Both the position numbers and the translations under genes were made by a program. A stretch of 64,000 nt of DNA from Alphaproteobacteria bacterium (GTDB lineage Bacteria; Pseudomonadota; Alphaproteobacteria; Rickettsiales; UBA998). The notes below the pieces were generated by a model. The model was not told the DNA's origin. It made no database searches and worked only from the letters and a program-made list of their open reading frames with translations. Position 1 is the stretch's first letter. Each line of letters starts with the position of its first letter. Below, piece after piece: positions 2,581 through 61,892 of this stretch. The stretch lies in contig JAYUJH010000041.1 in assembly GCA_043765375.1 (NCBI GenBank), positions 3,325-67,324 on the forward strand, in the 5' to 3' direction.

Positions 2581-2798
2581 GTTAAAAAAATCCTTGTTAA
2601 TATTTGCGAAATGTGATGTTAAAAATAAATTATTAAATGATAACTTAGTTTATTTTGTTGCATTTGTCACTAACTCGCTTTGATTTTTTGAATAAAATAT
2701 TGTTAATTAAACAAGTAATATTTGAAGTAATTATCTATTCATTGATTATTATTGTTTTACTTCATGAAATTGTCACTTTATTTGGTTATTATATATTT

Positions 2799-5209: not shown

Positions 5210-5407
5210 CGATAACAATATCCACATCTATAGCATTTTCACATTTGAATGATATAAAATAGGCGTCATGCAAACGTGAAACCACTATAATATTGTTGCA
5301 AAATCATAATAAATTAATTAGTTTGTTGTTATAAGAATTATGTTTATAATATGTAACTGTGTTGCAAGTGAAAGTTTGCGATGCGGTGGGATAATTAGGA
5401 TTTATTT

Positions 5408-36524: not shown

Positions 36525-36570
36525 TTTTATTTGATATCATATATTTAAGTTTATCTCTATTAACCTTTTA

Positions 36571-36630
36571 CCTCAACCCTCCCTCACTTGCGGGGTGAAA
36601 CTGCAAGTGAGTTCACGGTTGGGGTGGGGG
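36571..36630. repeat. GC-rich nested palindromic element
   Basis: CCTCAACCCTCC-CTCACTTGC-GGGGTGAAACT-GCAAGTGAG-TTCAC-GGTTGGGGTGGGGG. Located between the flbD stop and the flhA start. Compositionally like the hairpin repeats in gltB and upstream of lolA. Confidence 0.6.
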
Positions 36631-36637
36631 ATTCAAA

Positions 36638-37960
36638 TTATTCATATCTCGGATCGTCATAAAGGCGCAATTTATTACGCAAAGTGCGAATGGAAATACC
36701 CAAAATATTGGCGGCGTGAGTGCGGTTACCAAGGCAATGATCCAATGTTTTGAGGATTAAGTTTTTCTCAACATCAGCAACTGTGCGCCCCACCAACATG
36801 GATATTTCTGTGCCTTCATCGTCATGCTCGGCAATGATTTGAGTAGTGATTTTTTGCGCATCATTATTTTGCAAGATTATTGCATCAACATTAATTTCAT
36901 GTTCACGATTCATTAAAATCGCTCGGTGCATCATATTCTCCAACTCTCTGATGTTACCTGCAAATTGATATTCCAACAATTTATCCTTAGCTTCTTGCGT
37001 TAATTGATGCACGGGAATGTTGTTAGCAGTTGAATATTTAGCAATGAAATGCTCGGCTAACATGATGATATCATCGCCTCGTTCCCGCAGGGGTGGCAAT
37101 GCAATGTTAATCACATTTAGGCGATAATATAAATCTTCCCTGAAAGTGCCAATGCGCACCGCTTTCATCATATCACGGTTGCTAGTGGCGATGATGCGAA
37201 TATCAATTTTTATGGGCTTTGTTCCACCCACTCTATCAATTTCACGTTCTTGCAATGCTCGCAATAATTTGGCTTGCAACTTCAAATCCATCTCGCTAAT
37301 TTCATCAAGTAGCAATGTGCCTTTATCCGCTTCTTCAAACTTGCCAATGCGTCGCCCTAATGCGCCCGTGAATGCGCCTTTTTCATGTCCAAATAATTCG
37401 GATTCTAGTAAGTTCTCGGGGATTGCTGCACAATTAACTGAGATAAATGGTTTATCAACTCGCTTGGATTGCTTGTGGATATGTCGTGCAATCACCTCTT
37501 TGCCCGTGCCAGATTCTCCAGTGATTAGCACTGTTGCATCTGATGGTGCAACTTGGTTTGCCATATCAACAATTTTTTGCATAATTTTGGAGTTATAAAG
37601 CAATTGATGTTCATCTTGGGTGATTGCTTGCAACACGGCGGCGATTAATTCTTCATCGGGGGGTAGGGGAATATATTCCTTTGCTCCCGCTTTGATTGCT
37701 CTGACTGCTGCTTCTTTGTCCCTCGCAATTCCGCATGCCACCACGGGAATGGAAAATCGTTGCATTCTGATTGCGGCAATGAAACGGGCGATATCTTCCT
37801 TAACCGAAATCATGATTAAATCAGCACCTTTGCCCTCGCTTAATGCTGCAATGGCGATATCCGAGGTTTCACAATGACTGACTCTAGCCCCCCGCCTTGC
37901 TGCAATATCTGTTGCAATAGCTAATTGCACCTCTAAATCGCCAACAATCATTAACCTCAT
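36638..37960 (-). CDS. flbD: sigma-54-dependent flagellar transcriptional activator (FlbD-like)
   Basis: Degenerate receiver domain, AAA+ core (GESGTGKEVIARHIH, GAFTGA, ATSNRD) and C-terminal Fis-type HTH. Synteny fliN-flbD as in Caulobacter. Confidence 0.88.
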   Translation of the reverse strand: MRLMIVGDLEVQLAIATDIAARRGARVSHCETSDIAIAALSEGKGADLIMISVKEDIARFIAAIRMQRFSIPVVACGIARDKEAAVRAIKAGAKEYIPLPPDEELIAAVLQAITQDEHQLLYNSKIMQKIVDMANQVAPSDATVLITGESGTGKEVIARHIHKQSKRVDKPFISVNCAAIPENLLESELFGHEKGAFTGALGRRIGKFEEADKGTLLLDEISEMDLKLQAKLLRALQEREIDRVGGTKPIKIDIRIIATSNRDMMKAVRIGTFREDLYYRLNVINIALPPLRERGDDIIMLAEHFIAKYSTANNIPVHQLTQEAKDKLLEYQFAGNIRELENMMHRAILMNREHEINVDAIILQNNDAQKITTQIIAEHDDEGTEISMLVGRTVADVEKNLILKTLDHCLGNRTHAANILGISIRTLRNKLRLYDDPRYE

Positions 37961-37971
37961 GTTGCCTCGCC

Positions 37972-38262
37972 TTATTTTTTATCAGCTTTGATGATTTCTG
38001 TCATAGTTACCCCGACGCGATCTTCTACCACCACGACTTCACCCCGAGCAACCAAACGATTATTAATATAAATATCAACAGGTTCACCAACTTTTTTGTT
38101 TAGCTCAATCACTGCGCCTCGCCCCAACTTCAGTAGCTGATGCACTTGCATTGTTGTTTTGCCAAGCACCACTGAAATCTGCACAGGAATATCCTGCACA
38201 GCCTCCAATGATAGGCTATCATCGTTATTTCCCAGCAACTCATTGCTAAAAGGATTATCCAT
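37972..38262 (-). CDS. fliN: flagellar motor switch protein FliN
   Basis: 96 aa. SpoA/FliN domain VQISVVLGKTTMQVHQLLKLGRGAVIELNK...VARGEVVVV. Confidence 0.9.
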   Translation of the reverse strand: MDNPFSNELLGNNDDSLSLEAVQDIPVQISVVLGKTTMQVHQLLKLGRGAVIELNKKVGEPVDIYINNRLVARGEVVVVEDRVGVTMTEIIKADKK

Positions 38263-39017
38263 TATAATTGCTCCTTAATTTTATTGATTTTAGTAATTGT
38301 TGCAACAGGCGCACGCACCGCAATGGTTGGTAGCGGTGGACAAATTGCATCTATCTCAGCCGTTAGCTTCTCAAGTGAACGCTCCGCATCGCCAAATTGC
38401 CACTCTATTCTGATGTCACCACGTTGCATATTTTCATCAGAGGCAACTTGTAACTCACCCGCATAGCCCGCATCGGAGATTTGTGCGTTAATATCATTCC
38501 AAAACTCAGACGCATCTGCCTCACATACCATGATTTTTAGGCTTGGATAATCCAAAATATGGGGCAGACATTTTTCAATCATCTCACGCAATAATGCAAG
38601 CGAGTTTTGTTCAATCGCTTGCCCGCCTAGTTTTTTCGCCACGCTAAAAGCAAGTTGCGCAAGGGTTGTATGTTGCGCCTCAATTTGCGTTTTGATAACA
38701 TCATTTGCGTTGGTGATTTGTTCATTCAAGGCTTGCAATTGCTGATTTAAGCGCATTTGATTTTGCACCTCTTGCTGTTGATGCGCTGATATTGCTGCAT
38801 TTCTGCCTTCTTCCACGCCACGTTCATAGGCTATTTTTTTCGCTTGCTCCAGCTCGTTTTCAGAAAATATTGGGGCAATTGGTGCTTGAATTACCTCAAT
38901 TGGAACAATTTCTGGCGCATCATCAATCAGTGAGATTTCAATGAAATCCTCAGCCTTATTGAAATCCCGCAATGCAAAAAAATCAAAACGTTTTATTTGA
39001 ATAATATCATTTCTCAT
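38262..39017 (-). CDS. flagellar assembly protein FliH/FlbE-like
   Basis: 251 aa. Position between fliG and fliN, central coiled-coil (EEGRNAAISAHQQQEVQNQMRLNQQLQALNEQ), and a start overlapping the fliN boundary. Sequence similarity is only weakly recognisable. Confidence 0.55.
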   Translation of the reverse strand: MRNDIIQIKRFDFFALRDFNKAEDFIEISLIDDAPEIVPIEVIQAPIAPIFSENELEQAKKIAYERGVEEGRNAAISAHQQQEVQNQMRLNQQLQALNEQITNANDVIKTQIEAQHTTLAQLAFSVAKKLGGQAIEQNSLALLREMIEKCLPHILDYPSLKIMVCEADASEFWNDINAQISDAGYAGELQVASDENMQRGDIRIEWQFGDAERSLEKLTAEIDAICPPLPTIAVRAPVATITKINKIKEQL

Positions 39018-39054
39018 ATTTATCAGCCTTGATTGTTAGTTGTTAAATATTAGT

Positions 39055-40080
39055 TTAATATACAAACTGGTCTTCTCCATTAGCTTCGGCAATCATTATT
39101 TCCCCTTTGGTGGCGAGGTCTTTAGCAATTCCCACTACATACATTTGTGCTTCATCAACATCTTTCAAACGCACAGGCCCCATTGATTCCATATCCTCCA
39201 ATAATATTTTTGCTGCCCGCTCCGACATATTACCAAAAAATAAATCTTTCAACACATCAGATGAACCTTTCAATGCCATTGCTAATTTTTCCTTGTCAAG
39301 GTTGCGCATCATGGTTTGTATGCCAGCTGAATTGATTTTGACTAAATCCTCAAATGTGAACATTAAATTGCGTATTTTTTCAGCGGAATCAGGGCTTCTC
39401 TGCTCCAAATGTCCCATGAACTTGCCTTCTGAATTGCGGTCAAAATTGTTGAAAATATCCGCCATCATTTCATAACTATCACGTTTTTGGGTTTTAGATA
39501 TATTGCTCATAAACTCTTGACGCAAAGTTTTTTCCACCCCTTCAACTACTTCTTTTTTGACGGAATCCATGATAAGCATACGATTGATAACTTCAATCGT
39601 TAATTCTTCAGGCAGTGCGGTCAATACTTTGGCGGCGTGGTCGGGGCGTATTTTGGAGATAATCAAAGCAATTGTTTGCGGATATTCATTTTTCAGGAAT
39701 GATGCTAGCACCTCCTCATTAACATTTGCGAGTTTGTCCCAAGTGGTGCGTCCTGCGGGCCCGCGGATTTCGTCCATGATTGAACCAACTCGCTCTTTGC
39801 CAAGGGCTTTTGCAAGTAATCGTTGGGTGGAGTCAAAGCTGCCAATCAACACACCAGCTGCACTCATCTGCTCGGTGAACTCGCTAAATAATCGCTCCAC
39901 ACATTCAGAATCAACTTTGCCTAAGCTAGACATCGCCGTTGAAATATCCTTGATTTCATCATCACCCATCATTCCAAACAATTTGCTAGCTGCCTCGTCA
40001 CTGACGGACATCATCATAATAGCTGTTTTTTGCACTCCAGTTATTGAGCGATAATCATCTTTGGTGATAGATTTTGCCAT
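39055..40080 (-). CDS. fliG: flagellar motor switch protein FliG
   Basis: 341 aa. Blocks AAKVLTALPEE, MFTFEDL and the C-terminal torque helix region LKDVDEAQMYVVGIAKDL. Confidence 0.93.
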   Translation of the reverse strand: MAKSITKDDYRSITGVQKTAIMMMSVSDEAASKLFGMMGDDEIKDISTAMSSLGKVDSECVERLFSEFTEQMSAAGVLIGSFDSTQRLLAKALGKERVGSIMDEIRGPAGRTTWDKLANVNEEVLASFLKNEYPQTIALIISKIRPDHAAKVLTALPEELTIEVINRMLIMDSVKKEVVEGVEKTLRQEFMSNISKTQKRDSYEMMADIFNNFDRNSEGKFMGHLEQRSPDSAEKIRNLMFTFEDLVKINSAGIQTMMRNLDKEKLAMALKGSSDVLKDLFFGNMSERAAKILLEDMESMGPVRLKDVDEAQMYVVGIAKDLATKGEIMIAEANGEDQFVY

Positions 40081-40186
40081 TTATGCTAATCCTTATAAAA
40101 CTGAATGACTATTTGAAATTAAATTAATATGTGAAATTAAATTATCATTTGAAACTGAATTACTATGTGAAACCGAGTGATTATTT

Positions 40187-41809
40187 TTAATTGTTATCTT
40201 CATAAACCCAACTCCGTAGCACTGTGAGGCTTTCCTCGGGGTTATTTTCAATTAAATCATTTATTTTGCGGTAAAGCGAGGATTTAATTGGCCCATTAAT
40301 TTTGTCAATGGTGACGGTGGAATTATCATTTTCGTCAATGCTGAAATCCTCCAACAAGCCAGACATTGAAGGAGCAGAGAGGAGTTTTTGTAACTCCGCA
40401 TCTTCCGCTTCATTGCGTTCTTGGTTGCTGATGGTTTTGTTGACAATTGGACGTATGATTAATAATATCACTAATATTGCCACGGTTGCTAGCACTAAAG
40501 TTTGAAAAATTGAGTTAAAATCACGCTTTAACCAATCAAATGCCGATTCTTTTTCTATTAACATACTGTCTGAGAATTGCATATTAACTACTTCAATCAC
40601 ATCTCCCCTGTCTGCATCATAACCAACGGCGGAGCGCACTAATGTTTCTAACTGCGCCAATTCTTCAGCACTGCGGGGTTGGTATTGTGAAACACCATCA
40701 GCATTTGCATTATAAACGCCATCAATCAACACGGCGATGCTCAAACGATTAACTTTTCCCGTTTCTTTAACGTGATTTTGCACGGTTTTGGATATTTCAA
40801 AATTAGTAGTTTCATCGGTTCGCTGCATATTGCGGTTGACATCAAGCCCAGCATTATCAGCTTTTTTGTCGGGCAGGTTATTTGCAACTGAAACATTATC
40901 GCTTTGAGTTTTCTCAGTTTCTTGCTCATTTTCTTCAATTGATTGCACAGATCTTGCAACTTGTCCTTCAGGATCAAACTTCTCGGAATTAGTGACAATT
41001 CTATCAAAATCAATATCCGCATTAACTTCGGCTTTCACTTTGCCATAACCAACGGAACGCTCAAGCAATGATTCAATGGTTGAAGTGAGTTTTTTCTCAT
41101 AATTACTGCGAAACTCTTGGCTAGCCGCTGCCAAAACTTCAGGGTCATTTTCATCTTCAATGCCCTTGGCAAGCATTCGCCCTTGATTATCAATAATCGT
41201 GATACGAGTTGGCTTCAGCCCCGTGACTGATGTTGCAACTAAATGTTTAATTGCATTCACTTCCATTTTGCCAAGTTCAGTTGAACCTCGCAAACTTAAT
41301 ATCACTGATGCGGTTGGATCACGCTTATCACGGTTGAATAATTCACGTTTGGGAATAACAAGGTGAACCCGAGCCGAACTAACTTGTTTTATGGTGGCGA
41401 TGGTGCGAGCTAATTCGCCCTCAAGTGCGCGCAATTTATTAACATTTAACACAAAGTTTGATGTTCCGAGTGCATCACCACTATCAAATATTTCATAACC
41501 AACGCCAGAACCATTGCTTGGCAAGCCTTTTCCAGCAAGCATCACACGGGCTTGATCCACTTTATCATCTGGAACGAGAACTTGTTTGCCACCAGCTGCT
41601 AGCTCATATGGAATGCCTAGTTGGTCTAATTCCTCAACAATTTCTGCACCATCTTCAAGGGAGATATTGTTGAATAATGGTGACATAGTCGGGCTGGAGG
41701 CACGCATTGAGATGAATACGAAAAAGGCGAGCAAAGCGAATCCAACTGCCGCCATTGCGCCAATTTTTGTTTTATTCATTTCGCCGAAAGATTGCGCAAT
41801 AGCATTCAC
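40187..41809 (-). CDS. fliF: flagellar M-ring protein FliF
   Basis: YscJ/FliF family: LFNNISLEDGAEIVEELDQLGIPYEL, SARVHLVIPKRELF, C-terminal TM. Start set to GTG 41809 with GGAG 9 nt upstream. The alternative is ATG 41779; the track start TTG 41881 is unlikely. Confidence 0.9.
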   Translation of the reverse strand: MNAIAQSFGEMNKTKIGAMAAVGFALLAFFVFISMRASSPTMSPLFNNISLEDGAEIVEELDQLGIPYELAAGGKQVLVPDDKVDQARVMLAGKGLPSNGSGVGYEIFDSGDALGTSNFVLNVNKLRALEGELARTIATIKQVSSARVHLVIPKRELFNRDKRDPTASVILSLRGSTELGKMEVNAIKHLVATSVTGLKPTRITIIDNQGRMLAKGIEDENDPEVLAAASQEFRSNYEKKLTSTIESLLERSVGYGKVKAEVNADIDFDRIVTNSEKFDPEGQVARSVQSIEENEQETEKTQSDNVSVANNLPDKKADNAGLDVNRNMQRTDETTNFEISKTVQNHVKETGKVNRLSIAVLIDGVYNANADGVSQYQPRSAEELAQLETLVRSAVGYDADRGDVIEVVNMQFSDSMLIEKESAFDWLKRDFNSIFQTLVLATVAILVILLIIRPIVNKTISNQERNEAEDAELQKLLSAPSMSGLLEDFSIDENDNSTVTIDKINGPIKSSLYRKINDLIENNPEESLTVLRSWVYEDNN

Positions 41810-42135
41810 AATGAATATCTCCGCTTTAATAATATTTTTTATATATATTCCAATATTCACATGAGTTTGCAGAAAATGCAACCAAGTTTTTCGCTAAGCA
41901 AGCAATATTTACCTAGTAAGCTGATATTATATTGTAATTTTGGCATTTTTGCAACAATCATTATGATGATAATATGTTGGCTGTGGTAATTTTTGCCTAG
42001 GTTGTGTTGTGTTTTCTACTGTTGCTTGCTGCAAATCGCATTAACTAATTTTAGTAACTAATTTTTTTGGCTGCAATTATTTAATATTTTTCATGTATCA
42101 CATTATAAGTTGACGCAAAACTGATAATTGCGTAA

Positions 42136-45492: not shown

Positions 45493-45774
45493 ATGAATAT
45501 CAGCTACTCACAAACGAAGAACCAACAGAACATAGAAAAGCATGGTATTTCATTTGAACTAATAGAAGAAATGGAGCAGACGACTTCATATACCAAACAA
45601 GATTTAAGAAATAAATATAACGAGCCAAGATTTATAAGTTATGGTTTTATTCGTAATAGGTTGCACATATTAATATGGACTTTAAGGGAATATAAAATGC
45701 GTGCAATTAGCTTGCGCAAAGCCAACAAAAAAGAAGAGAGAGAATATTATGACAAAATGGGAACAAGAGATTGA
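45493..45774 (+). CDS. brnT: BrnT-family (DUF497) toxin
   Basis: 93 aa. N-terminal QQNIEKHGISFE, central EPRFISYG and C-terminal MRAISLRKANKKEEREY match the BrnT pattern (KHG-x-F ... E-x-R ... R-x-IS-x-R-x-A). Confidence 0.78.
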   Translation: MNISYSQTKNQQNIEKHGISFELIEEMEQTTSYTKQDLRNKYNEPRFISYGFIRNRLHILIWTLREYKMRAISLRKANKKEEREYYDKMGTRD

Positions 45775-46045
45775 AGATGCAGATGACGCATGGGCTGATA
45801 TACCATTAACGGACGAAGAATCAGCTGCTTTTCCAACTTATTTCGGGATAGATGGGTTGCCTGAAGATGCAAGAAATGCGTTTTTGAACTTTGTGGCAGA
45901 AATTAAAGAGCGCAAAAAGAAAGCAATTTCGGTGCGTATTGATGAGGATATAATTGCATGGTTGAAATCTTCTAGTGATGCTTATCAAACACAATTAAAC
46001 ATGATTTTACGCCAAGCAATGCTAAAAGATATTGCGGGCAAATAA
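45749..46045 (+). CDS. brnA: BrnA-family (DUF4415/RHH) antitoxin
   Basis: ATG 45749 overlaps the brnT 3' end by 26 nt. The C-terminal KKKAISVRIDEDIIAWLKSSSDAYQTQLNMILRQAM matches the BrnA/DUF4415 signature. Confidence 0.72.
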   Translation: MTKWEQEIEDADDAWADIPLTDEESAAFPTYFGIDGLPEDARNAFLNFVAEIKERKKKAISVRIDEDIIAWLKSSSDAYQTQLNMILRQAMLKDIAGK

Positions 46046-47060: not shown

Positions 47061-47165
47061 TATTTATTCATTGCTATATGTTGGTTATTGTCGCTTGATT
47101 ATTGATGATTTTGAGGGTAAGTTATCCCTTGAAGTAATTGGTGGAAGATAATTTTTAAGGTGCAA

Positions 47166-48242
47166 ATGATGCTTGAACGGCAATCTGAGAATATACATGT
47201 TAATGATGTTATGAATGGTGATGTGGTCATTGAAAATGAGAATGGCGCAGATTTTGTGGAAAATATTTCGCTAAAAGATGATGTGAAAGATATTTCACCA
47301 AATAAAAATAACAATAAAAATAATAATAATAAAATAGCGAAATTATGTTGGGTTGCGGGTTTATGCGCCGTGATTTTTGGCAGCTGGTGGGTGGCTAATT
47401 TACCTGATGAGCAGAAAGCTCAAGCGCAACGCAAACAGCAATTTGCACAGGCGAAACAATTAGTTGCACAAAATCAACTAAACCGTCAGCAGGAGTTGGA
47501 TAAATTAGGGTTGGATAAGTTAGAGGAAAAATCTGTTGCGAGCGGCATTAAAACGGGTGATGATTTGCCCGCAAGTCTAAATAATCAAGCTCCAAATATA
47601 GCAACTCCTAACCTTAAAATATTAGGCGTGCAGAATAATTCAGATGGTGGTGAAATATTAACAAGTGATAATGCAGCAACCTCGCTTATGAAGGAAGATG
47701 TTATTGCGGAGCAAAATCAAAGCGTGAAAGATGATATTGTGAAAGGGCAATTAGTTGAGGAGCAAGCAGTTTTGAAACAAAAATTAGTTGCAAAAAACTT
47801 GATAATCAAACAATTGCAAAGGGAATTAGAGCAATCAAAACAACAAAATATTGCATTGCAACAGCGAAATGTGGAGCAAGCTGAATTATTTAAGCCATAT
47901 TTGAAAATTATTCCGCAAATTGCCAAATCCAAGCCATTGAATGAATTGTTGCAAATGGCAGTAGATGATTATTATAATCATAATCAGCAAGGTGGAATGA
48001 TTGGTTCATTGGTGATGATGCGCAAAATTGGGGCGGATCATGCGGGTGGTGATGATGCTTCAATTATCGCAAGATTAGAGCATTATGCGCAAAATAATCA
48101 ACTTAAAGATGCAGTTGAGTTGGCGCAAAGTTTGAGTGTTGAGGCATCGCCTTATTTTAAGAAATGGCGAAAAATTGCTTATGCACATTTGGAGATGCAA
48201 CGAATGGTTGAGCAAAACTTAAAAATTGGAGGGGCGCAATGA
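47166..48242 (+). CDS. alphaproteobacterial Mic60-like protein (mitofilin-domain; often annotated HemX-like)
   Basis: N-terminal TM (LCWVAGLCAVIFGSWWVA), long Gln-rich coiled coil, and a conserved C-terminal helix bundle (DAVELAQSL...YFKKWRKIAYAHLEMQ). Translationally coupled (ATGA) to the HemY_N gene. Confidence 0.6.
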   Translation: MMLERQSENIHVNDVMNGDVVIENENGADFVENISLKDDVKDISPNKNNNKNNNNKIAKLCWVAGLCAVIFGSWWVANLPDEQKAQAQRKQQFAQAKQLVAQNQLNRQQELDKLGLDKLEEKSVASGIKTGDDLPASLNNQAPNIATPNLKILGVQNNSDGGEILTSDNAATSLMKEDVIAEQNQSVKDDIVKGQLVEEQAVLKQKLVAKNLIIKQLQRELEQSKQQNIALQQRNVEQAELFKPYLKIIPQIAKSKPLNELLQMAVDDYYNHNQQGGMIGSLVMMRKIGADHAGGDDASIIARLEHYAQNNQLKDAVELAQSLSVEASPYFKKWRKIAYAHLEMQRMVEQNLKIGGAQ

Positions 48243-49597: not shown

Positions 49598-49665
49598 TTT
49601 TATAATATTAGTAAAATCCATGATATATATAAAAATATTTGACAAATGCGTTGATTATAGGTTTG

Positions 49666-52600
49666 ATGGTGGCTATGGAAAATGATGGCAAATTGAAATA
49701 TTATTCATCTGAGCTGGAGCAGCATTTTGGCAAGCATGGTATGTATGATGCGAGTGATGAGCATGATGCTTGCGGGGTTGGTTTGGTCGCAGCGATTGAT
49801 GGCAACCCAAGGCGTGAAGTGATTGATAAAGCGATTGCTGCGCTGAAATCTGTGTGGCATCGTGGGGCGGTGAATGGTGATGGCAAAACGGGCGACGGTG
49901 CGGGAATCCATTTGCAATTACCGCATAATTTTTTCGCAAGCGTTGTGCCAACATATGCACAAGCGATTGCTGAAGGCGCGCCTGTTGGGGTGGGAATGTT
50001 GTTTCTGCCACGCACAGATGCGGGAGCGCAGGAAGAGGCAAAACTGATTATTGAAACGGAGATTGCTCGCCTTAATATGCGCATAATAGGGTGGCGACAA
50101 GTGCCAATTCGCCCTGAAATTATTGGTGATGATGCTAATTTCACTCGCCCTGAAATTATGCAGGTGTTTATTCGTGGTGCTGTTGCGCCCCTTAAAAATA
50201 TATTCACCCCCCCTCCCAACCTCCCCCCGCAAGGGGGGGAGGAGCCGTTTGCGAACGACCCTCCAGAGCAAAAACGAGGGGAGGAGCTGTTTGCGAACGA
50301 CCCCCCAGAACAGAAAATGAGCTTTGCTTCTACGCAAAAAATGGAGCAGGAGTTTAGCGCAGACAATGCGCAGAGGGATAAAAATAATGATGAGTTTGAA
50401 CGCAATTTATATATTATTCGCCGTCGTATTGAGCGTAAATTACGGCAAGCAGCGATTAATGATTGCTATATTTGCTCGCTTTCAAGCCGTATTATAATTT
50501 ATAAAGGCCTGTTTCAAGCATCGCATTTGAGTGTGTTTTATCCTGAATTGAACAATCCGTTGCTTGTTTCATCATATGCTATTTTTCATCAGCGATTTTC
50601 CACTAATACCGCACCAAGTTGGGCGATGGCGCAGCCTTTTCGTATGGTAGCGCATAATGGTGAGATTAACACGCTTCGTGGCAATGTGAACTGGATGAGC
50701 AGCTATGAGGCTTGTTTTGGGGCGGAAGTTTTTGCCCATGCGATTGAGGATTTAACCCCGATTGTGCCACCGAGTGGTTCTGACACTGCAATGCTTGATG
50801 CGGTGATGGAGTTTATCACTTTATCAGGCAAGAAATTACCATTTTCAAAGTTGATGTTGATTCCGCCAGCTTGGCGCAAAGATGATGATTTGATTGAGGA
50901 TTCACACAAAGCATTATATGAATATGCAAATTGTTTAATGTCACCATGGGACGGCCCCGCAGCGATTGTGGCGTGTGATGGTAATTGGGTGGTTGCAGGG
51001 ACTGACCGCAATGGGTTGCGCCCTTTGCGTTATGCGATAACTAAGGATGGGTTGCTTACCGTTGGTTCAGAAACTGGAATGGTAGCATTAGCGAGTGATG
51101 ATGTGTTGCACTTGGGGCAGCTTTCACCAGGGCAGTTGATCGGGGTGGATTTATGCACGGGTAAATATTACGGTGATGTGGAGCTGAAAAATTATTTGGC
51201 AAGTGCAGCTGATTATGCAGACAAAATCGCTAATATTAAAGAGATTAGGATTGGGGGGGTTAAGGTTGTTGAAGATGATGTTAATCAAAATGAAGTATTA
51301 AATATATCTGAGAATGATAATCAATCGCATGATGTTAGTTCGCTATTAAATCAGCAATTTGCAGCGGGATTTTCGGCAGAAGATATTGATATGATAATAT
51401 TGCCAATGTTGCGTGATGGCAAGGAGGCTGTTGGTTCAATGGGTGATGATACGCCTTTGGCAGTGATGTCTTCACATTATCGTGGGTTGCATCATTTTTT
51501 CAGGCAGCATTTTTCACAAGTAACCAATCCACCGATTGACCCGTTGCGTGAGGCTCATGCGATGAGTTTGGCGACAAAAGTTGGTATGGTGCGCAATATT
51601 TTGGGAGAAAATCCAGATTTATCAGCGATAGTTCATTTGGATACGCCAATTTTGATGCAAGCGGAAATGCAAGCATTGCTCGCACATTTTGCGGGGCTTC
51701 ATTCATGTGTGTTGGATTGCACTTATGGCGCAAGCGATGATGCAGATGCGTTGCGTAATGCGATTGATGAATTAATCATGCAAGCTGATGACGCAATCAA
51801 GCATGGGGCGCAAATGCTGGTTTTATGTGATATGAACGCGGGGGCGGATAGGTTGGTTATTCCAGCAATTTTGGCAGCGGCAGCCGTGCATACTCATATG
51901 GTGAATCTGCGCAAACGTAAGCAATTATCAATTATTTCACGAACATCATGTGTGTGTGATACTCATAGCATGGCAGTGCTGATTGGCGTGGGAGCAACGG
52001 CGGTATATCCATATTTGATGGAGCAAACGGCTCGGAGTTTATGCGATGCTGGTAAGGTGAAATATGTAACAAAAACTTTACCAATACAATCTTCAGTTAT
52101 ACCCTCTCCTCAACCCACTTTTCCCTCTCCCCTAGCCCCTCTCCCAGAGGGCGAGGGGAACTCTCTCAAAAATCATATTGCCCTCTCCCCACCAATTACC
52201 TCACCCCTCACCCCTACCCTCTCCCAAGGGGAGAGGGAGGCACTCAATCAGCAGCATTACTCTAAATTAAGCCGATATATGGTTGAGTTTGCTAGAGAAT
52301 TGCGTCAGAACTCCTCAAACGTGCAGCAAGCATTATGGCAAGTTTTACGCAATAGTAATTTACAAGTCAAGTTTCGTAGGCAACACCCGATTGATAACTT
52401 AATTATAGATTTTTATTGCCATGAATTAAAATTAGGAATTGAGATATTTAAGGTTAAGGCAGAATTATCAAAACAACAATATCTGCAAACTAAAAATATT
52501 AAATTATTACAATTTGATAATCAAGAAATGCTGAAAGATGTTGGTAAGTTCATAAATATCATTATTGATGAAATTGAAATGCGCCAGAAACTCAGCATTC

Positions 52601-55176
52601 AAGATAAAGACAGCATTCAAAAATATAGTTCTGGATTTAGCGTTCCCTCTCCCAAAGGGAGAGGGCAGGGTGAGGTTATCTCCCCTCTCCTCATAGGAGA
52701 GGGGCAGGGGGTGAGGTCTGGTAGTGATATTTCTATAATTGAGTTTGAGCAAGCTATTAAAAATCTGCGTCATGCTTATGAACAGGGTATGTTGAAGATT
52801 ATGTCAAAAATGGGCATTTCGGTGATAAGTTCGTATCGTGGAGGGCGCAATTTTGATGCAATTGGTCTATCACGTTCACTGGTGGCGGAGTTTTTTCCGG
52901 GGTTGGTTTCTCGCATTTCGGGGATTGGGTTGCAGGAGTTGCAGCGTAAAATCAAGGATTTGCATGATGTGGCTTATAATAAAAAAAATCCGTTAGCAAT
53001 TGGGAGCCTACCAATAGGGGGCCTACCAATTGGAGGCCTACCAATAGGAGGATTTTATCGTTATCGCAATAATGGTGAAAAACATGCTTATGAAGGTGAA
53101 TTAATTCATCGTTTGCAAACGGCATGTGCTACGGGGAGTTATAAACAATATCTAGATTTCGTCAGTGGAGTTGCTAAGCAAGAAGCAATTCACATACGTT
53201 CACTGTTTGAGTTTAACTCGGATCGCAAAGCAATTTTGTTGCAGGAAGTGGAATCTGTGCAAAATATTCGCAAGCGTTTTGTTGCCCCCGCCATGTCACT
53301 TGGGTCGCTAAGTCCAGAGGCACATCATACGCTAGCAATTGCTATGAACCGTATCGGAGCGGCGAGTAATTCGGGCGAAGGTGGTGAAGGAGCAGAGCGA
53401 TATTATCCGTTAGCCAATGGTGATAATCCTAATTCTAGCATCAAACAAGTTGCATCGGGGCGTTTTGGGGTAACAGCGCAATATTTGCAACATTGCTCGG
53501 AGATTCAAATAAAGGTGGCGCAAGGAGCAAAACCGGGTGAAGGGGGGCAGTTGCCATCATTCAAAGTGACGGCTGAAATTGCTCGGTTGCGCCATACAAC
53601 TATTGGCACAATGTTAATTTCACCACCGCCACATCATGATATATATTCCATAGAAGATTTAGCGCAGTTAATTTATGACCTTAAACAAATTAATCCGAAT
53701 GCGATTGTGTCCGTCAAGTTGGTGGCGCAATCAGGAATTGGGACGATTGCAAGCGGGGTGGTGAAAGCGTTGGCGGATAAAATCATTATTTCAGGGCATG
53801 TGGGAGGAACTGGTGCAAGCCCGCTTTCTAGCATAAAATATGCTGGTGTTCCTTGGGAAATGGGGCTGGCGGAGGTGAGCCAAGTTCTTGCGATTAATAA
53901 ACTCCGTCATAGGGTGCGGTTGCAAACTGATGGCGGTTTGAAAGTTGGGCGTGATATTGTGATTGCCGCTATGCTTGGTGCAGATGAATATGCAATTGGA
54001 ACACTTTCATTGGTGGCGATGGGTTGTTTGATGGTGCGACAATGTCATAGCAACACTTGCCCCGTTGGGATTTGCACGCAAAATGAGCAATTACGCAAGC
54101 ATTTTGATGGCACGCCAGAGAAGGTGATTAACCTGATGAGCTTTATCGCTGAAGATGTGCGTCATATTTTGGCAGATTTGGGTTATTCCTCGCTTAATGA
54201 AATTATCGGCCGCACTGATTTGTTGCGGCAAATGGTGCATGAAAATGCGGATATTAATATGTTGGATTTAACGCCGTTACTCACCCGACCAACTTTACAC
54301 AATGCAGAAATGAAGCAAGATTCACGCCCCTATAACCCTGTTGCAGATGCGTTGGATAGCAAGATTATCGCTGAAGCAGGAGAATCACTAAGGTTGGGGC
54401 AGAAAGTGCAGTTGAATTATACGGTGCATAATACTGACCGAACCATAGGAGCGGGTCTTTCACATTATTTGTTGAAGCATCATAGTGATATGAGTGGTGA
54501 TATGAGACTAACAGATACCATGCTAACAGATAATTTAGTGCAGCTTTCATTGCAAGGGACAGCGGGGCAATCACTTGGAGCATTTTTGGTGCATGGCGTG
54601 GTGATTAATTTGCAAGGTGATGCGAATGATTATGTTGGCAAAGGGCTTTCAGGCGGGCGAATTATTGTGCGCCCTGACCCTGCATCGGGGCTTGTGAGCC
54701 AACAAAATGCAATTATTGGTAACACAGTGCTTTATGGCGCAACTAGTGGAGAATTATATGCGGCGGGGATTGCGGGTGAGCGTTTTGCGGTGCGTAACTC
54801 GGGGGCGATAGCGGTGATTGAGGGTTGCGGTTCAAACGCACTGGAATATATGACTGGTGGTGTGGTGGTGATACTCGGCAAAACTGGTAATAATATAGCA
54901 GCGGGAATGACGGGCGGAATTGCTTATATTTATGATGAAACTTTGATTGATGGGCGGGGATTATTACCGCAATTAATTAATAATGAAAATGTGGTTTGTA
55001 AAAATATGGTTTATAAAAACATAGTTTATAATGGGGTTTCAGATGCGGAGCATATTGTGAAATTGCAGCAATTAATTGAAAAGCATGTGCGCTATACTGG
55101 TTCAATATATGCGCAAAATATTTTGGAGAGTTGGGAGCAAAGTTTGCAATGCTTTTGGGTGGTGCAACCAAAATAA
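49666..55176 (+). CDS. gltB: glutamate synthase large subunit, with several in-frame insertions
   Basis: All four GltB domains are recognisable: Ntn amidotransferase CGVGLVA...; central FFRQHFSQVTNPPIDPLRE; FMN domain QVASGRFGV...KPGEGGQLP...ISPPPHHDIYSIEDLAQLI; C-terminal GXGXG beta-helix. The start is ambiguous (TTG 49639, ATG 49666, ATG 49675). Length is about 1840 aa, against about 1500 expected. Confidence 0.9.
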   Translation: MVAMENDGKLKYYSSELEQHFGKHGMYDASDEHDACGVGLVAAIDGNPRREVIDKAIAALKSVWHRGAVNGDGKTGDGAGIHLQLPHNFFASVVPTYAQAIAEGAPVGVGMLFLPRTDAGAQEEAKLIIETEIARLNMRIIGWRQVPIRPEIIGDDANFTRPEIMQVFIRGAVAPLKNIFTPPPNLPPQGGEEPFANDPPEQKRGEELFANDPPEQKMSFASTQKMEQEFSADNAQRDKNNDEFERNLYIIRRRIERKLRQAAINDCYICSLSSRIIIYKGLFQASHLSVFYPELNNPLLVSSYAIFHQRFSTNTAPSWAMAQPFRMVAHNGEINTLRGNVNWMSSYEACFGAEVFAHAIEDLTPIVPPSGSDTAMLDAVMEFITLSGKKLPFSKLMLIPPAWRKDDDLIEDSHKALYEYANCLMSPWDGPAAIVACDGNWVVAGTDRNGLRPLRYAITKDGLLTVGSETGMVALASDDVLHLGQLSPGQLIGVDLCTGKYYGDVELKNYLASAADYADKIANIKEIRIGGVKVVEDDVNQNEVLNISENDNQSHDVSSLLNQQFAAGFSAEDIDMIILPMLRDGKEAVGSMGDDTPLAVMSSHYRGLHHFFRQHFSQVTNPPIDPLREAHAMSLATKVGMVRNILGENPDLSAIVHLDTPILMQAEMQALLAHFAGLHSCVLDCTYGASDDADALRNAIDELIMQADDAIKHGAQMLVLCDMNAGADRLVIPAILAAAAVHTHMVNLRKRKQLSIISRTSCVCDTHSMAVLIGVGATAVYPYLMEQTARSLCDAGKVKYVTKTLPIQSSVIPSPQPTFPSPLAPLPEGEGNSLKNHIALSPPITSPLTPTLSQGEREALNQQHYSKLSRYMVEFARELRQNSSNVQQALWQVLRNSNLQVKFRRQHPIDNLIIDFYCHELKLGIEIFKVKAELSKQQYLQTKNIKLLQFDNQEMLKDVGKFINIIIDEIEMRQKLSIQDKDSIQKYSSGFSVPSPKGRGQGEVISPLLIGEGQGVRSGSDISIIEFEQAIKNLRHAYEQGMLKIMSKMGISVISSYRGGRNFDAIGLSRSLVAEFFPGLVSRISGIGLQELQRKIKDLHDVAYNKKNPLAIGSLPIGGLPIGGLPIGGFYRYRNNGEKHAYEGELIHRLQTACATGSYKQYLDFVSGVAKQEAIHIRSLFEFNSDRKAILLQEVESVQNIRKRFVAPAMSLGSLSPEAHHTLAIAMNRIGAASNSGEGGEGAERYYPLANGDNPNSSIKQVASGRFGVTAQYLQHCSEIQIKVAQGAKPGEGGQLPSFKVTAEIARLRHTTIGTMLISPPPHHDIYSIEDLAQLIYDLKQINPNAIVSVKLVAQSGIGTIASGVVKALADKIIISGHVGGTGASPLSSIKYAGVPWEMGLAEVSQVLAINKLRHRVRLQTDGGLKVGRDIVIAAMLGADEYAIGTLSLVAMGCLMVRQCHSNTCPVGICTQNEQLRKHFDGTPEKVINLMSFIAEDVRHILADLGYSSLNEIIGRTDLLRQMVHENADINMLDLTPLLTRPTLHNAEMKQDSRPYNPVADALDSKIIAEAGESLRLGQKVQLNYTVHNTDRTIGAGLSHYLLKHHSDMSGDMRLTDTMLTDNLVQLSLQGTAGQSLGAFLVHGVVINLQGDANDYVGKGLSGGRIIVRPDPASGLVSQQNAIIGNTVLYGATSGELYAAGIAGERFAVRNSGAIAVIEGCGSNALEYMTGGVVVILGKTGNNIAAGMTGGIAYIYDETLIDGRGLLPQLINNENVVCKNMVYKNIVYNGVSDAEHIVKLQQLIEKHVRYTGSIYAQNILESWEQSLQCFWVVQPK
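50205..50320 (+). repeat. in-frame GC-rich hairpin plus 42-nt tandem duplication inside gltB
   Basis: CCTCCCCCC-GCAA-GGGGGGGAGG (50220-50242), followed by two 42-nt units encoding GEEPFANDPPEQKR / GEELFANDPPEQKM. Confidence 0.75.
52085..52735 (+). mobile_element. in-frame insertion in gltB: degenerate DUF559/Vsr-like endonuclease domain flanked by two GC-rich hairpins on each side
   Basis: Core ~52270-52590 encodes FARELRQNSSNVQQALWQVLRNSNLQVKFRRQHPIDNLIIDFYCHELKLGIEI...LLQFDNQEM. Hairpins lie at 52136-52158, 52217-52237, 52645-52665 and 52682-52704. No stop codon. GltB-like sequence resumes at FEQAIKNLRHAYEQGMLKIMSKMG. Confidence 0.7.
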
Positions 55177-55240
55177 TATGTTGCGAAATACTTATTTTAT
55201 AATATATAATGGAAAATAAAATATTTTTTAGGTAAATAGA

Positions 55241-55963
55241 ATGCATAGTTTTTCAATTAATAGTAAATCGATAGTTTTTATTTCAGAAGCTGTAGGTAAT
55301 ATTGTTTCACAAAATGGAATAGATATTATAACATCATCGAATAATTCTATTGATAATAAAAAAATACCAGCATTTTATGTTAATCAATTTGATTTAAGTG
55401 AAAACAAAGTCATAGATAAAACTTGGGAAGAAGAAGAAAGACCAGTTTATACCGGGGTTGAAGCAAATATAATTTATAAAAATGGAATAAATATTGCAGC
55501 GCAATTCAATAGATTAATGGTAGCTAATAATAAACAAGATATATCTGACACAGTATTCACGACTAAAGCAAAAAATTTGTATAAAATGCTTAATGATAAA
55601 GAAATAAAACCTAATCAAATAGGATTAAATTTTTTCATGTTATTAAGTTGTGAAAATTGCGATGATTATATTAATGATAACTTTTTGAATAAAAGCGTAT
55701 TTTCAAAACTAGGAAAATCAGTGTTGCAACCTTACGTAAGAGTTTCATATGAAATTACAGAATATGAAAAATTAAATATAGCAATTTACACAGCTAAAAA
55801 AGAAAATATCAAGAACAACACTATGTCGGGAGATGAATTTGTTGTGCTTGAAGCCAATTATCATTATGAATTAAAATCTGAAAATACCTCTGCAAACATT
55901 ATAATAGATAACAGCAAGAAAAAATTAGATTTACTTAAAAAGTTATTTTCCATAGAGTCTTAA
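55241..55963 (+). CDS. hypothetical protein (240 aa), remote paralog of ORF 542..1210
   Basis: Very AT-rich intact ORF 64 nt after gltB. Shares blocks with the 222-aa ORF (see that entry). Confidence 0.55.
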   Translation: MHSFSINSKSIVFISEAVGNIVSQNGIDIITSSNNSIDNKKIPAFYVNQFDLSENKVIDKTWEEEERPVYTGVEANIIYKNGINIAAQFNRLMVANNKQDISDTVFTTKAKNLYKMLNDKEIKPNQIGLNFFMLLSCENCDDYINDNFLNKSVFSKLGKSVLQPYVRVSYEITEYEKLNIAIYTAKKENIKNNTMSGDEFVVLEANYHYELKSENTSANIIIDNSKKKLDLLKKLFSIES

Positions 55964-55966
55964 GCA

Positions 55967-56359
55967 ATGAACTCACCAACAATACCTACAGGAACAGTTA
56001 CTAACCCAGCATTATCTTCAACCGCAGCTAGTGCAAGTTTCACAGTTTCACCGCCTCAATTAACACAGGTTCCTAATCAAGGTAGCAAAGGCTGGATGAA
56101 ATATTTTAATAACACTCCTGTTATTTCCGTAATTGTATGTTTAATTGCAACTATAATAGGCATGGCTATTAATATTTACTATAAGGATAACAGTCAAGTA
56201 ACTACAGATATTGTAAACTTGGCTGATAAACTTGAGACAATAAATAATAATTTGATAAACAACAATAATTCTATTAATGCAAAGATAGATAATCTGGATG
56301 TTAGATTAACTCATAGAATAGATTTGCTTTTTCAAGATAATAAAAACAAAATAAAATGA
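55967..56359 (+). CDS. small membrane protein: Pro/Ser/Thr-rich head, TM helix, Asn-rich coiled coil (130 aa)
   Basis: Starts 3 nt after the previous stop. TM VISVIVCLIATIIGMAINIY, then DIVNLADKLETINNNL...IDNLDVRLTHRIDLL. Its stop overlaps the SDR start (ATGA). Confidence 0.5.
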   Translation: MNSPTIPTGTVTNPALSSTAASASFTVSPPQLTQVPNQGSKGWMKYFNNTPVISVIVCLIATIIGMAINIYYKDNSQVTTDIVNLADKLETINNNLINNNNSINAKIDNLDVRLTHRIDLLFQDNKNKIK

Positions 56360-57123
56360 AACATGCACTAATCACGGGGGCGGCGAAACGAGTTGGGCGA
56401 GAAATTGCCTTGCATTTGGCAGCTAATGGCTATGATATTACTATTCATTATAATGATTCATATGATGAAGCGTGCCAAACCAAGCATGATGTTGAATTGC
56501 ATAATGTGAAATGTTGGTTGGTGCAAGCTGATTTGAGTGATTTGCATCAGGCTGGTGAGATTGTGCAAAAAGCATATGCGCAAGGTGGGGAAATAACTTT
56601 ATTAATTAACAACGCATCATTATTTTTGAAAGATGATTTGGCAAATGTTACAGCGCAATCATTGCAATCCCACATGAATATTAATTGTTTTAGTGCGGTG
56701 ATGTTGACGCAAGAATTGTTGAAACAAAAAATGGAGGCGCATAGTTCGTCACTCAATAATTTGTCACCGACGCAAGTGATATGTTTGCTTGATGGTATGA
56801 ATAGTTGGAGTATCTCGCCTAATTTTTTGGCTTATTCACTGAGCAAGCAAGCATTGGAGCAGTTCATAAAATTGCAAGCGGCAAGCCTTGCACCGCATAT
56901 TCGCCTGAATGGAATTGCACTCGGGGCAACCATGTGCGGGCATATGGATAAGGAAGATACATTTGCAAAAATTGCTGAATTAAGCCCGCTTAAACGAGTT
57001 AGCAACCCGCAAGAAGTGTGTGACGCTGTGATGTTTTTGGAGAATATTCCAACAATCACGGGGCAGATTATTTCGCTCTCAAGTGGGTTTAATTTGCAAT
57101 CAATTAGTGGTGCTAGGTTTTAG
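56356..57123 (+). CDS. SDR family oxidoreductase (pteridine-reductase-like)
   Basis: Cofactor motif ALITGAAKRVGREIA, NNAS, catalytic YSLSK. Confidence 0.82.
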   Translation: MKHALITGAAKRVGREIALHLAANGYDITIHYNDSYDEACQTKHDVELHNVKCWLVQADLSDLHQAGEIVQKAYAQGGEITLLINNASLFLKDDLANVTAQSLQSHMNINCFSAVMLTQELLKQKMEAHSSSLNNLSPTQVICLLDGMNSWSISPNFLAYSLSKQALEQFIKLQAASLAPHIRLNGIALGATMCGHMDKEDTFAKIAELSPLKRVSNPQEVCDAVMFLENIPTITGQIISLSSGFNLQSISGARF

Positions 57124-57137
57124 TAAATTAGGGGCTA

Positions 57138-57166
57138 GGGTTTAGGGTTTAGGGTTTAGGGTTTAG
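57138..57166. repeat. heptanucleotide microsatellite (GGGTTTA)x4
   Basis: GGGTTTAGGGTTTAGGGTTTAGGGTTTAG fills the 45-nt gap between the convergent SDR and rsmE stops. Confidence 0.9.
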
Positions 57167-60532: not shown

Positions 60533-60973
60533 ATGAATGAACAAAATATCTATGAGTTGGAGCAGTATTTTTCGCAATTAATTGAGAAATCTTTGGGGGA
60601 TTTGCGTGAAGATTTGCTTGATAAAATGAATGAGTTATTGCAAAATCTGAATGGTGCGCCAGATTTTCAAGCGGATTTATCTGATGGAGTTGTGAAGGCT
60701 GGTGCAGATGATTTCGGCAGTAAAACTTTTGATGCGTTTGGTGATGTCATTAGTTATGCAGCGATTTCTGCCGTGTTACCAAATATTAATTCTACCGCCC
60801 GCTTGCCTCGGGGGCTTGATGGTAGCGTGGTATTTCGCCCTGCATTGCGCAGAGTTGGAACATTGGCGGGGAAAACTATTGCTAGCACAATTTTTGATAC
60901 AAGTGGTGGCAAAATTAGTTACGGCTCTAGGCAGCTGGGAAGCAGCATTTTTGCGGAATTATTTTCAGGGTGA
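60533..60973 (+). CDS. hypothetical protein (146 aa)
   Basis: Intact ORF with GGGG 10 nt upstream of the ATG. No motif recognised. Confidence 0.45.
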   Translation: MNEQNIYELEQYFSQLIEKSLGDLREDLLDKMNELLQNLNGAPDFQADLSDGVVKAGADDFGSKTFDAFGDVISYAAISAVLPNINSTARLPRGLDGSVVFRPALRRVGTLAGKTIASTIFDTSGGKISYGSRQLGSSIFAELFSG

Positions 60974-61614: not shown

Positions 61615-61730
61615 CCCTCTCCCGCAAGGGGAGAGGGAGAAAAGGAGTTCTCTCCCGCAAGGGGAGAGGGAGCAGAAGAGTTCTCTCCCGCAAGGGGAGA
61701 GGGAGCAAAAGAATTCTCTCCCGCAAGGGG
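61615..61730. repeat. tandem array (33-nt period, 4 units) of GC-rich GCAA-loop hairpins
   Basis: CTCTCCC-GCAA-GGGGAGAG occurs at 61617, 61650, 61683 and 61716 (the last is truncated), separated by GGAGNAGAAGAGTT-type linkers. Located between recR and lolA. Confidence 0.9.
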
Positions 61731-61892
61731 ATTTGTGGCGAATAAGTTATCTGTTTCAATGGAAGATGAAGGCATGAAAGGATCCTGAAAAAACTATCCC
61801 GCCCACTGCACGGTTGAAACATAAAATGCTTGACGTTTGGCAGGATTGGTGGCTTATATGTCGTGATAGGTTTGTAAAAAACATTCAAAATA

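Follow-up and report, generated by a model that had tools for sequence, protein, structure and literature searches.

A two-gene cassette at an alphaproteobacterial gltB-SDR junction is a variant of a widespread, unannotated gene family

Two genes at the gltB-SDR junction

Near one end of a 64,000-nucleotide stretch of alphaproteobacterial DNA (GenBank assembly GCA_043765375.1, contig JAYUJH010000041.1, positions 3,325 to 67,324; hereafter, the window), gltB is followed by two small AT-rich genes, A2 and B2, and then by a gene of the short-chain dehydrogenase/reductase (SDR) type, identified by Pfam adh_short (1e-26). An earlier account of this DNA, made from the letters alone and here called the sequence-only reading, had described A2 and B2 as two open reading frames (ORFs) of 240 and 130 amino acids lying 3 nt apart, with the B2 stop overlapping the SDR start codon as ATGA. 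The coordinates were exactly as claimed and the overlap is present; the three nucleotides past the A2 stop are GCA. A second cassette, composed of the large gene OrfA-1 and the small gene OrfB-1, occupies the other end of the window, where it lies between glyA and nrdR (Table 1). There, the two genes overlap by 11 nt, and OrfB-1 ends in the same kind of ATGA overlap, here with nrdR. The window contains two copies of this cassette, which is a genuine two-gene operon of deviant composition.

The sharp drop in composition relative to both neighbours, also part of the sequence-only reading, was borne out. The GC content is 25.2% in A2 and 30.5% in B2, compared with 44.2% in gltB, 40.8% in the SDR gene and 40.9% in the window as a whole, and the dip at the cassette is evident in a sliding profile. 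At third codon positions, GC is 0.17 in A2 and 0.21 in B2 and about 0.39 elsewhere. No direct or inverted (terminal) repeats above the AT-rich background flank either cassette. A consensus scan returned a candidate sigma-70-type promoter in the 64 nt that separate gltB from A2; it is supported by the consensus alone, and such sites are no more numerous in the region than in shuffled sequence. No gltD adjoins gltB in the window contig or in the contig of the closest related locus (L009, described below), and a Pfam scan of 10 large ORFs of the window identified none.

The sequence of B2 has the layout previously read from it, a Pro/Ser/Thr-rich head followed by a transmembrane helix and an Asn-rich coiled coil. 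Serine and threonine together make up 40% of residues 2-21 vs 10% of the remainder. In relatives of B2, basic residues sit in the N-terminal region (e.g., MARRK... and ...RRRREK...), and because of this the Ser/Thr-rich head is expected to be cytoplasmic and within reach of the A protein, with the coiled coil outside.

Table 1. Features of the two cassettes and their immediate surroundings (window coordinates)
Feature	Position	Strand	Remarks
gltB	49639-55176		upstream of A2
Candidate sigma-70-type promoter, TTGCGA-18-TATAAT	55181-55210	+	10/12; consensus scan; in the gltB-A2 gap
A2	55241-55963	+	240-aa ORF
B2	55967-56359	+	130-aa ORF; single-pass membrane protein
B2, N-terminal Ser/Thr/Pro-rich segment	55967-56101	+	residues 1-45; probably disordered
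B2, transmembrane helix VISVIVCLIATIIGMAINIYY	56120-56182	+	residues 52-72; Kyte-Doolittle 19-residue maximum 2.66
B2, Asn-rich heptad-like coiled-coil segment	56195-56329	+	conserved RID-x-L motif, from an alignment of B2-like proteins
Stop/start overlap ATGA	56356-56359	+	couples B2 to the SDR gene; identical overlap in the ortholog L009
SDR gene	56356-57123	+	downstream of B2
OrfA-1	1210-542	-	large gene of copy 1, 222 aa; starts 11 nt past the glyA stop
OrfB-1	552-1 (window edge)	-	small gene of copy 1; 215 aa on the full contig

Relationship between the two copies

Compared directly, A2 and OrfA-1 are 22% identical by BLASTP with an E value of 0.27, and their Smith-Waterman score is reached by 5 of 2000 composition-preserving shuffles. 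Their homology emerges at the level of profiles. A profile of A2 relatives aligned with OrfA-1 in hhalign over 153 columns (probability 97.4%, E 1.1e-11). A hidden Markov model (HMM) built from 35 family members outside the window matched A2 at 3.7e-52 and OrfA-1 at 3.9e-18 and had no other match among the 412 window ORFs, while a model restricted to the distant group matched the same two proteins at 1e-35 and 9e-18. In AlphaFold2 (AF2) models, strands and helices follow an identical order in the two proteins, with an extra N-terminal hairpin in A2. Judged by these profile comparisons, A2 and OrfA-1 are true paralogs, old and diverged.

The small proteins are a different matter. OrfB-1 consists of a short Ser/Thr/Pro-rich segment, a long coiled coil, a transmembrane helix and a Pro/Ser-rich tail, in that order; its head and coiled coil would be cytoplasmic and its tail outside. 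The score of B2 against OrfB-1 is reached by 19 of 2000 shuffles, and OrfB-1 is not among the best matches of a profile from three B2 relatives (the B genes of loci L009, L011 and L012) that matches B2 itself at 1e-13. B2 and OrfB-1 thus appear to have a general layout in common, with no detectable homology.

The sequence-only reading had held that both architecture and sequence blocks match between the copies and had taken the swapped order of transmembrane helix and coiled coil in the small proteins as a sign of modular evolution. The first claim stands in part: homology to copy 1, which that reading had itself named beforehand as a test, is detectable by profile for the large gene, whereas the small proteins share architecture only. 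The second claim is not supported, since the homology of B2 and OrfB-1 that it presupposes is not detectable and the second gene is replaced wholesale across the family. Replacement of one partner by a non-homologous one explains the difference between the small proteins better than domain shuffling, because the second gene of the family encodes unrelated proteins (8 BLAST clusters and 17 singletons among the operons described below).

An ortholog at the same site and the A2 subfamily

An exhaustive HMMER search with A2 of 1.84 billion representative proteins (E<1e-3) found 31 relatives besides the query, seven of them full-length at 31-45% identity. The family surfaced only in this search; word-seeded homology searches with A2 and OrfA-1 returned only the queries themselves, and an alignment-based word-seeded search returned 8 proteins. 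No match was obtained with an alignment of A2 and its ortholog against metagenome and viral contigs, and no phage or viral relative was found by sequence, tblastn included.

The closest relative of A2 (45%) lies on a metagenomic contig, L009, on which the gene order is likewise gltB-A-B-SDR. Between L009 and the window, identity is 75% for GltB and 65% for the SDR protein, whereas it is 44% for A and 36% for B, so that A and B evolve much faster than their neighbours. The L009 ORFs are intact (243 aa and 128 aa) and keep the ATGA overlap, and their GC content is 27% and 32% vs 41-45% in the surroundings. Because an ortholog with equally low GC occupies the identical junction, these comparisons indicate that the cassette is old and vertically kept and that it predates the split of the two organisms, being neither recent nor ameliorated. 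The earlier suggestion that it was inserted in the place of gltD is therefore not upheld, and neither is the cassette a universal core gene pair of known function. A scan of genome contigs with the SDR protein returned only actinobacterial SDRs at 27-40% identity.

The A2 subfamily comprises 8 loci: the window, L009 and six others. The six others lie at unrelated sites, including one after metH, one beside a trpD-like gene and a ribbon-helix-helix (RHH)/ParE pair (L011), one with a HigB/HigA-like pair and a DNA methylase, and one near cutA/znuA; other contigs are too short to show neighbours. In L111, Gp49/HTH_37 and a DNA methylase stand beside the A-B cassette. In L011, the RHH antitoxin and ParE toxin pair occupies positions 4736-5279 on the same strand, 124 nt downstream of A-B. 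The annotation of one subfamily member assigns it to an Alphaproteobacteria metagenome-assembled genome. A B2-type membrane protein is encoded just after A at 7 of the 8 loci, at a distance of 2-9 nt where coordinates were called. It matches the B2 profile at five of the six other loci (5e-12 to 7e-15 where tested, namely for the B genes of L110, L111 and L112), while the sixth encodes a different protein with two transmembrane segments. The subfamily B proteins have the same layout, with a Ser/Thr/Pro-rich N-terminus, one transmembrane helix and a coiled coil bearing a RID-x-L(Y) motif, and the cassette includes no toxin gene after B. Wherever the flanks suffice for comparison, A and B lie 7-15 GC points below their surroundings.

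A-B-C operons in metagenomes

Beyond the A2 subfamily, a pattern scan of metagenomes with the core-family alignment identified 80 loci. Of 67 loci in which A is followed by 600 nt or more of sequence, 66 have a co-directional gene, B, that is coupled to A and starts about -45 to +45 nt from it, and a coupled third ORF, C, follows in 51 of the 52 loci with a complete B and sufficient room. In all operons examined, A is encoded first. B is hypervariable, ranging from 150 to 320 aa. C proteins group into a few families; in those cases to which Pfam gives a name, C is a classical toxin, with DUF5615 (PIN-like; 3e-21), PIN (5e-8), HEPN (1e-5) or HNH (9e-6). One B contains DUF433 (1e-17) after a 115-aa N-terminal extension and precedes a DUF5615 toxin, for which Pfam gives DUF433 as the associated partner. 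A DUF5678 domain considered in another B was not confirmed by Pfam. None of 15 B representatives (10 from the core family and 5 of window type or plasmid neighbours) contains a DNA-binding domain recognisable by Pfam. Two large C clusters match no Pfam or NCBIfam family, one of 15 loci (about 147 aa) and one of 12 loci (about 180 aa), the latter marked by conservation of QSCD/QTCD. Because they fill the position of the PIN, HEPN and HNH toxins in sister operons, both are candidates for new families of toxins.

B and C vary together as cognate pairs, and A tracks B, not C: in 46 of 48 cases, an A protein and its nearest neighbour are paired with B proteins of one and the same cluster, and the A proteins of two HEPN-paired B clusters resemble each other no more than they resemble the remaining A proteins (31%). 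The N-termini of B proteins are enriched in serine and threonine (22% vs 12.7% in control ORFs, p 9e-14; vs the rest of the same proteins, p 1e-7). The share in the B2 N-terminus, given above, is exceeded by that of its ortholog, at 55%.

With both A2 and OrfA-1 belonging to this family, the window cassettes are a two-gene variant of it. The gltB-SDR cassette is not an ordinary one, nor is it freshly inserted or domain-shuffled; it is a variant of a widespread unannotated family.

A genes on cyanobacterial plasmids

When plasmids were searched by tblastn, full-length A members were found in cyanobacteria only, and every copy examined is labelled "hypothetical protein" in RefSeq. In 7 of the 12 plasmids inspected, a co-directional gene of 14-35 kb follows the A gene, either immediately or at a remove of one to two genes (e.g., NC_019772.1 167868-202784 and NC_014533.1 412536-447603). 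These giant genes encode Ig-, CARDB- or "polymorphic membrane"-type proteins, and most of the N-termini that were read begin with a low-complexity stretch rich in Ser, Thr and Asn. In Nostoc PCC 7120, the A gene is followed at a distance of 3.5 kb by a Calx-beta gene of 16 kb, and on two Oscillatoria plasmids (PCC 7112) the A gene ends an array of HINT-type polymorphic-toxin/immunity cassettes. Calothrix NIES-4105 has two tandem A paralogs ahead of its giant gene. No transmembrane segment was found in the first 1000 residues of the giant proteins. Shielding of a client transmembrane helix by A, of the Eag/DUF1795 type, was considered and rejected, as neither these first 1000 residues nor most core B proteins contain such a helix.

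Annotation, predicted fold and surface of the A proteins

A proteins are soluble, about 220-240 aa long and mostly mildly acidic, with a median pI of 5.7 (26 of 37 below 6; 5.6 for A2). No Pfam or NCBIfam model scored above noise for any A-family member scanned, and the Pfam SecB model matched none of 32 members. At curated cut-offs, A2, B2 and OrfA-1 match no Pfam or NCBIfam family that would constitute a recognisable toxin or antitoxin domain, nor does any of the three match a PADLOC family (E<=1); A2 and OrfA-1 have no meaningful PHROG match. OrfB-1, whose domains were sought in PADLOC and PHROGs, has only weak matches of the coiled-coil type (E 0.002-0.009 against the PADLOC 2.0 component models). 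The uncharacterised NCBIfam family TIGR04255 gave a sub-threshold match (E 0.006) in 1 of 32 members; the match was not reproduced, and none was obtained in 10 core members (E up to 10), two further core A proteins (E up to 0.05) or A2 and OrfA-1 (E up to 1). TIGR04255, which has no known function and for which no literature was found, would be at best a very remote relative of A. The A family has no sequence relative in the PDB. No description of it was found in the literature searched; one could exist beyond that literature.

The predicted A fold, modelled with high confidence (pLDDT 92.6 and pTM 0.89 for A2; pLDDT 89.1 for OrfA-1), is an alpha/beta sandwich of two duplicated beta-alpha-beta3-alpha halves, to which A2 adds a subfamily-specific N-terminal beta-hairpin insert. 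In a Foldseek search of the PDB, the best matches of A2 were to S-adenosylmethionine decarboxylase (AdoMetDC; 1msv and 1jl0), with E values of 1.4e-3 to 7e-3, probabilities of 0.98-1.0 and TM-scores of 0.34-0.37. However, the rmsd is 12-15 A, and A2 lacks both the pyruvoyl-processing motif and any sequence similarity to AdoMetDC. The best PDB match of OrfA-1 was RepDE (E 2.2e-3, TM-score 0.26), and Bet v 1/START/PYL proteins ranked lower among the matches of the A models. Going by the models, none of the solved structures would be a credible A homolog. The one good structural match came from BFVD, to the unnamed viral protein A0A515MGR4 (E 1.9e-10, TM-scores 0.60/0.69).

Across 120 sequences, the only polar residues conserved in at least 95% are two Asn on central beta-strands (N130 and N206 in A2). 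His208 is conserved in 76% of the same members, and no conserved set of Asp, Glu, Lys, Ser or Cys is present. The surface of A looks more like one that binds peptides or proteins than one that is catalytic or binds DNA.

A possible chaperone-like role for A

We tentatively favour a reading in which A serves the protein encoded next to it as a dedicated binding partner, or chaperone, in a role analogous to that of SecB but without any relation to it. On this view, A would not be an enzyme; as chaperone or neutraliser, it would recognise the Ser/Thr-rich extension at the N-terminus of the protein encoded immediately downstream and, by binding it, control the stability or activity of that protein. 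In the window cassettes, the client would be the membrane protein B (B2 or OrfB-1), and we propose residues 1-45 of B2 as the putative docking region for A2. B itself may be a membrane-acting effector restrained by A, or a domesticated derivative of one. The cassettes would have been embedded in, and translationally coupled to, the gltB-...-SDR and glyA-...-nrdR operons and kept there vertically as fast-evolving, AT-rich units.

The nearest known parallel is found in toxin-antitoxin-chaperone (TAC) systems (HigBA, MqsRA or HicAB type with a SecB-like chaperone; CmdTAC). In these systems, a SecB-like chaperone stabilises the antitoxin via a terminal "chaperone addiction" segment, and they are reported to act in anti-phage defence (PMC6377645; bioRxiv 10.1101/2024.02.24.581848). 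Like TAC operons, the core A operons contain three genes, combine one conserved protein, itself neither toxin nor antitoxin, with many different toxin/antitoxin pairs and encode a middle protein with a terminal extension. Unlike the TAC chaperone, A is not SecB-like (hhalign against E. coli SecB gave a probability of 0.4%); it is about 220 aa long with a duplicated beta-alpha-beta3-alpha layout and is encoded first. Furthermore, the extension of its client is N-terminal and Ser/Thr-rich instead of a C-terminal ChAD element, and both window cassettes are devoid of a toxin gene. The B-C pairs of the core family also resemble type II toxin-antitoxin pairs (VapBC/PIN, HEPN, DUF433-DUF5615, HNH), with which they share toxin domains and, in one case, the DUF433 partner. 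Those are two-gene systems, however, to which the A family adds a conserved preceding gene, and A2-B2 has no recognisable toxin or antitoxin domain. B2, with its single transmembrane helix followed by a coiled coil, recalls the phage i-spanin Rz (PHROG 739, weak at E 0.006). This match is at chance level, and B2 differs in an additional Ser/Thr-rich N-terminal segment of 45-90 aa, in the lack of any o-spanin, endolysin or phage context beside it (its neighbours are gltB and the SDR gene) and in a charge distribution among its relatives that suggests a cytoplasmic N-terminus.

In a broader form, the A family would be a large unannotated class of tripartite toxin-antitoxin or defence systems. 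Such systems would comprise a first-encoded, non-SecB chaperone or sensor, hypervariable antitoxins with a Ser/Thr-rich extension, and toxins of the PIN, HEPN, HNH, DUF5615 or unknown types, and their recognition module would have been co-opted twice, to serve giant exoproteins on cyanobacterial plasmids and to control a single-pass membrane coiled-coil protein from within the housekeeping operons of an alphaproteobacterial lineage. This generalisation is possible, though rather doubtful.

Several observations weigh against a chaperone-like role. The binding of A to B is a prediction. The predicted fold is unlike that of any known chaperone, its best PDB matches are weak, and an active site could still be made up of the conserved Asn and His, which lie on adjacent strands. 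The excess of Ser/Thr in the clients is modest and comes from 60 sequences that are not independent of one another phylogenetically; in OrfB-1, the share is 0% in residues 2-21 and 17.5% in residues 2-41. On the plasmids, A lies 100-730 nt upstream of the giant genes with no translational coupling, and one mechanism may not cover all contexts. The logic of the core toxin-antitoxin operons may not carry over to the window cassettes either, which have no toxin gene and whose third genes are SDR and nrdR. Finally, the cassette has stayed at one locus while GltB diverged by 25%, which would be unusual behaviour in a selfish module and is in keeping with a domesticated cellular role.

Alternative explanations

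The pair A2-B2 could instead be a self-contained membrane toxin-antitoxin or abortive-infection system, in which B2 forms oligomers via its coiled coil and makes the inner membrane permeable while A2 serves as antitoxin or infection sensor. As in the chaperone-like reading, A and B would be partners, but B would have to be the toxin and the pair would have to act in defence or addiction. Core-family operons do end in bona fide toxins, the GC deficit of the cassettes recurs in every genome examined, and their distribution is patchy, at different loci in different genomes and in some cases beside other toxin-antitoxin pairs (the RHH-ParE pair of L011; Gp49/HTH_37 with the DNA methylase of L111). 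The toxicity of B2 is purely putative, however. Although its transmembrane helix and coiled coil come with weak PHROG matches to Rz-like spanins and holins (E 0.006 to 0.5), these are at chance level and reflect composition. Together with the blank PADLOC results and the orthologous retention of the pair within a housekeeping operon in two diverged relatives, this makes the explanation an unlikely one. That same retention, with intact frames and conserved coupling to the SDR gene, is what would be expected if the pair were a domesticated, lineage-specific envelope or cell-cycle factor, set apart from conflict systems and expressed with gltB/SDR and glyA/nrdR by virtue of its location. The absence of a toxin gene and the conservation of B2-type proteins across 7 loci also speak for such a factor. 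The very fast evolution of A and B relative to GltB and the SDR protein, their persistent AT-richness, the presence in one genome of two deeply diverged copies with non-homologous B partners, and the occurrence of other subfamily members at unrelated loci by mobile or toxin-antitoxin genes argue in the other direction, and we regard domestication of this kind as improbable.

More improbable still is a role for A as an operon autoregulator or nucleic-acid binder without chaperone-like contact to B, comparable to omega in omega-epsilon-zeta or PaaR in paaR-paaA-parE. The constant first position of A and the lack of a recognisable DNA-binding domain in the B representatives are consistent with it, and the duplicated beta-alpha-beta-alpha layout recalls TATA-binding protein (TBP)-like folds, with weak BFVD matches to viral early transcription factor subunits. 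However, the TBP-like structural matches have TM-scores below 0.3, most A members are acidic, A has no conserved basic residue, and its co-diversification with the type of B fits protein-protein specificity. The view suggested by the sequence-only reading, that of a recently acquired mobile cassette that replaced gltD and whose small protein shuffles transmembrane and coiled-coil modules, drew on the sharp GC drop, on two copies within one 64-kb window and on the differing order of modules in B2 and OrfB-1. It is largely refuted and retains only the slightest likelihood: the L009 ortholog at the same site, equally low in GC, shows that the cassette is neither recent nor ameliorating, the flanks hold no repeats above background, B2 and OrfB-1 have no detectable homology, and viral or phage relatives are missing by sequence.

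If the chaperone-like reading of A is true, toxin-antitoxin systems would have arrived at "chaperone addiction" in two structurally unrelated ways, A being the second. The family offers dozens of A-B-C operons with different toxins, so the idea is testable by co-expression. It also provides a name and a context for the "hypothetical" proteins that RefSeq lists on the cyanobacterial plasmids examined. In this lineage, it shows that genes of the conflict type can lie within core metabolic operons (gltB, glyA-nrdR and, on another contig, metH), be translationally coupled to them and remain there across long divergence without losing their AT-richness.

Other features of the window

The gltB gene upstream of the cassette encodes a GltB of 1845 aa with several in-frame insertions (50236-50321, ~52100-52725 and 52997-53051), among them a 42-nt x2 tandem repeat and a 15-nt x3.5 'LPIGG' repeat. 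A further insertion encodes a DUF559 domain (Vsr-like endonuclease); this patch has a GC content of 31%, and palindromic repeats of the CCCTCTCC/GGAGAGGG type flank it on both sides. The L009 ortholog shares the DUF559 insertion, and glutamate synthase therefore appears to tolerate within it an ORF that resembles a mobile element. At 61617-61731, just upstream of lolA, the GGAGAGGG-type repeat recurs as a tandem array (33 nt x3.5), which reads 'LPLPLRER' x4 in a long ORF. On the far side of the cassette, the SDR and rsmE-like genes converge on a gap of 45 nt, which holds a TTAGGGT heptamer repeat (x5.6; 57128-57166).

Four ORFs match no Pfam family: 2655-3989 (444 aa, with a Gly/Met-rich N-terminal region), 4127-5209 (360 aa), 47160-48242 (360 aa) and 60533-60973 (146 aa). 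Another low-GC patch, at ~45493-46045, contains a BrnT/BrnA toxin-antitoxin pair upstream of pheA-like and hemY-like genes. Flagellar genes (FlhA, a sigma-54 activator and FliF) occupy 34335-41881, and a gene transfer agent (GTA)-type tail/host-specificity gene (GTA_TIM, Phage-tail_3, Rcc01698_C) lies at 22393-26076. GTA genes, like the adjacency of glyA and nrdR, are typical of Alphaproteobacteria.

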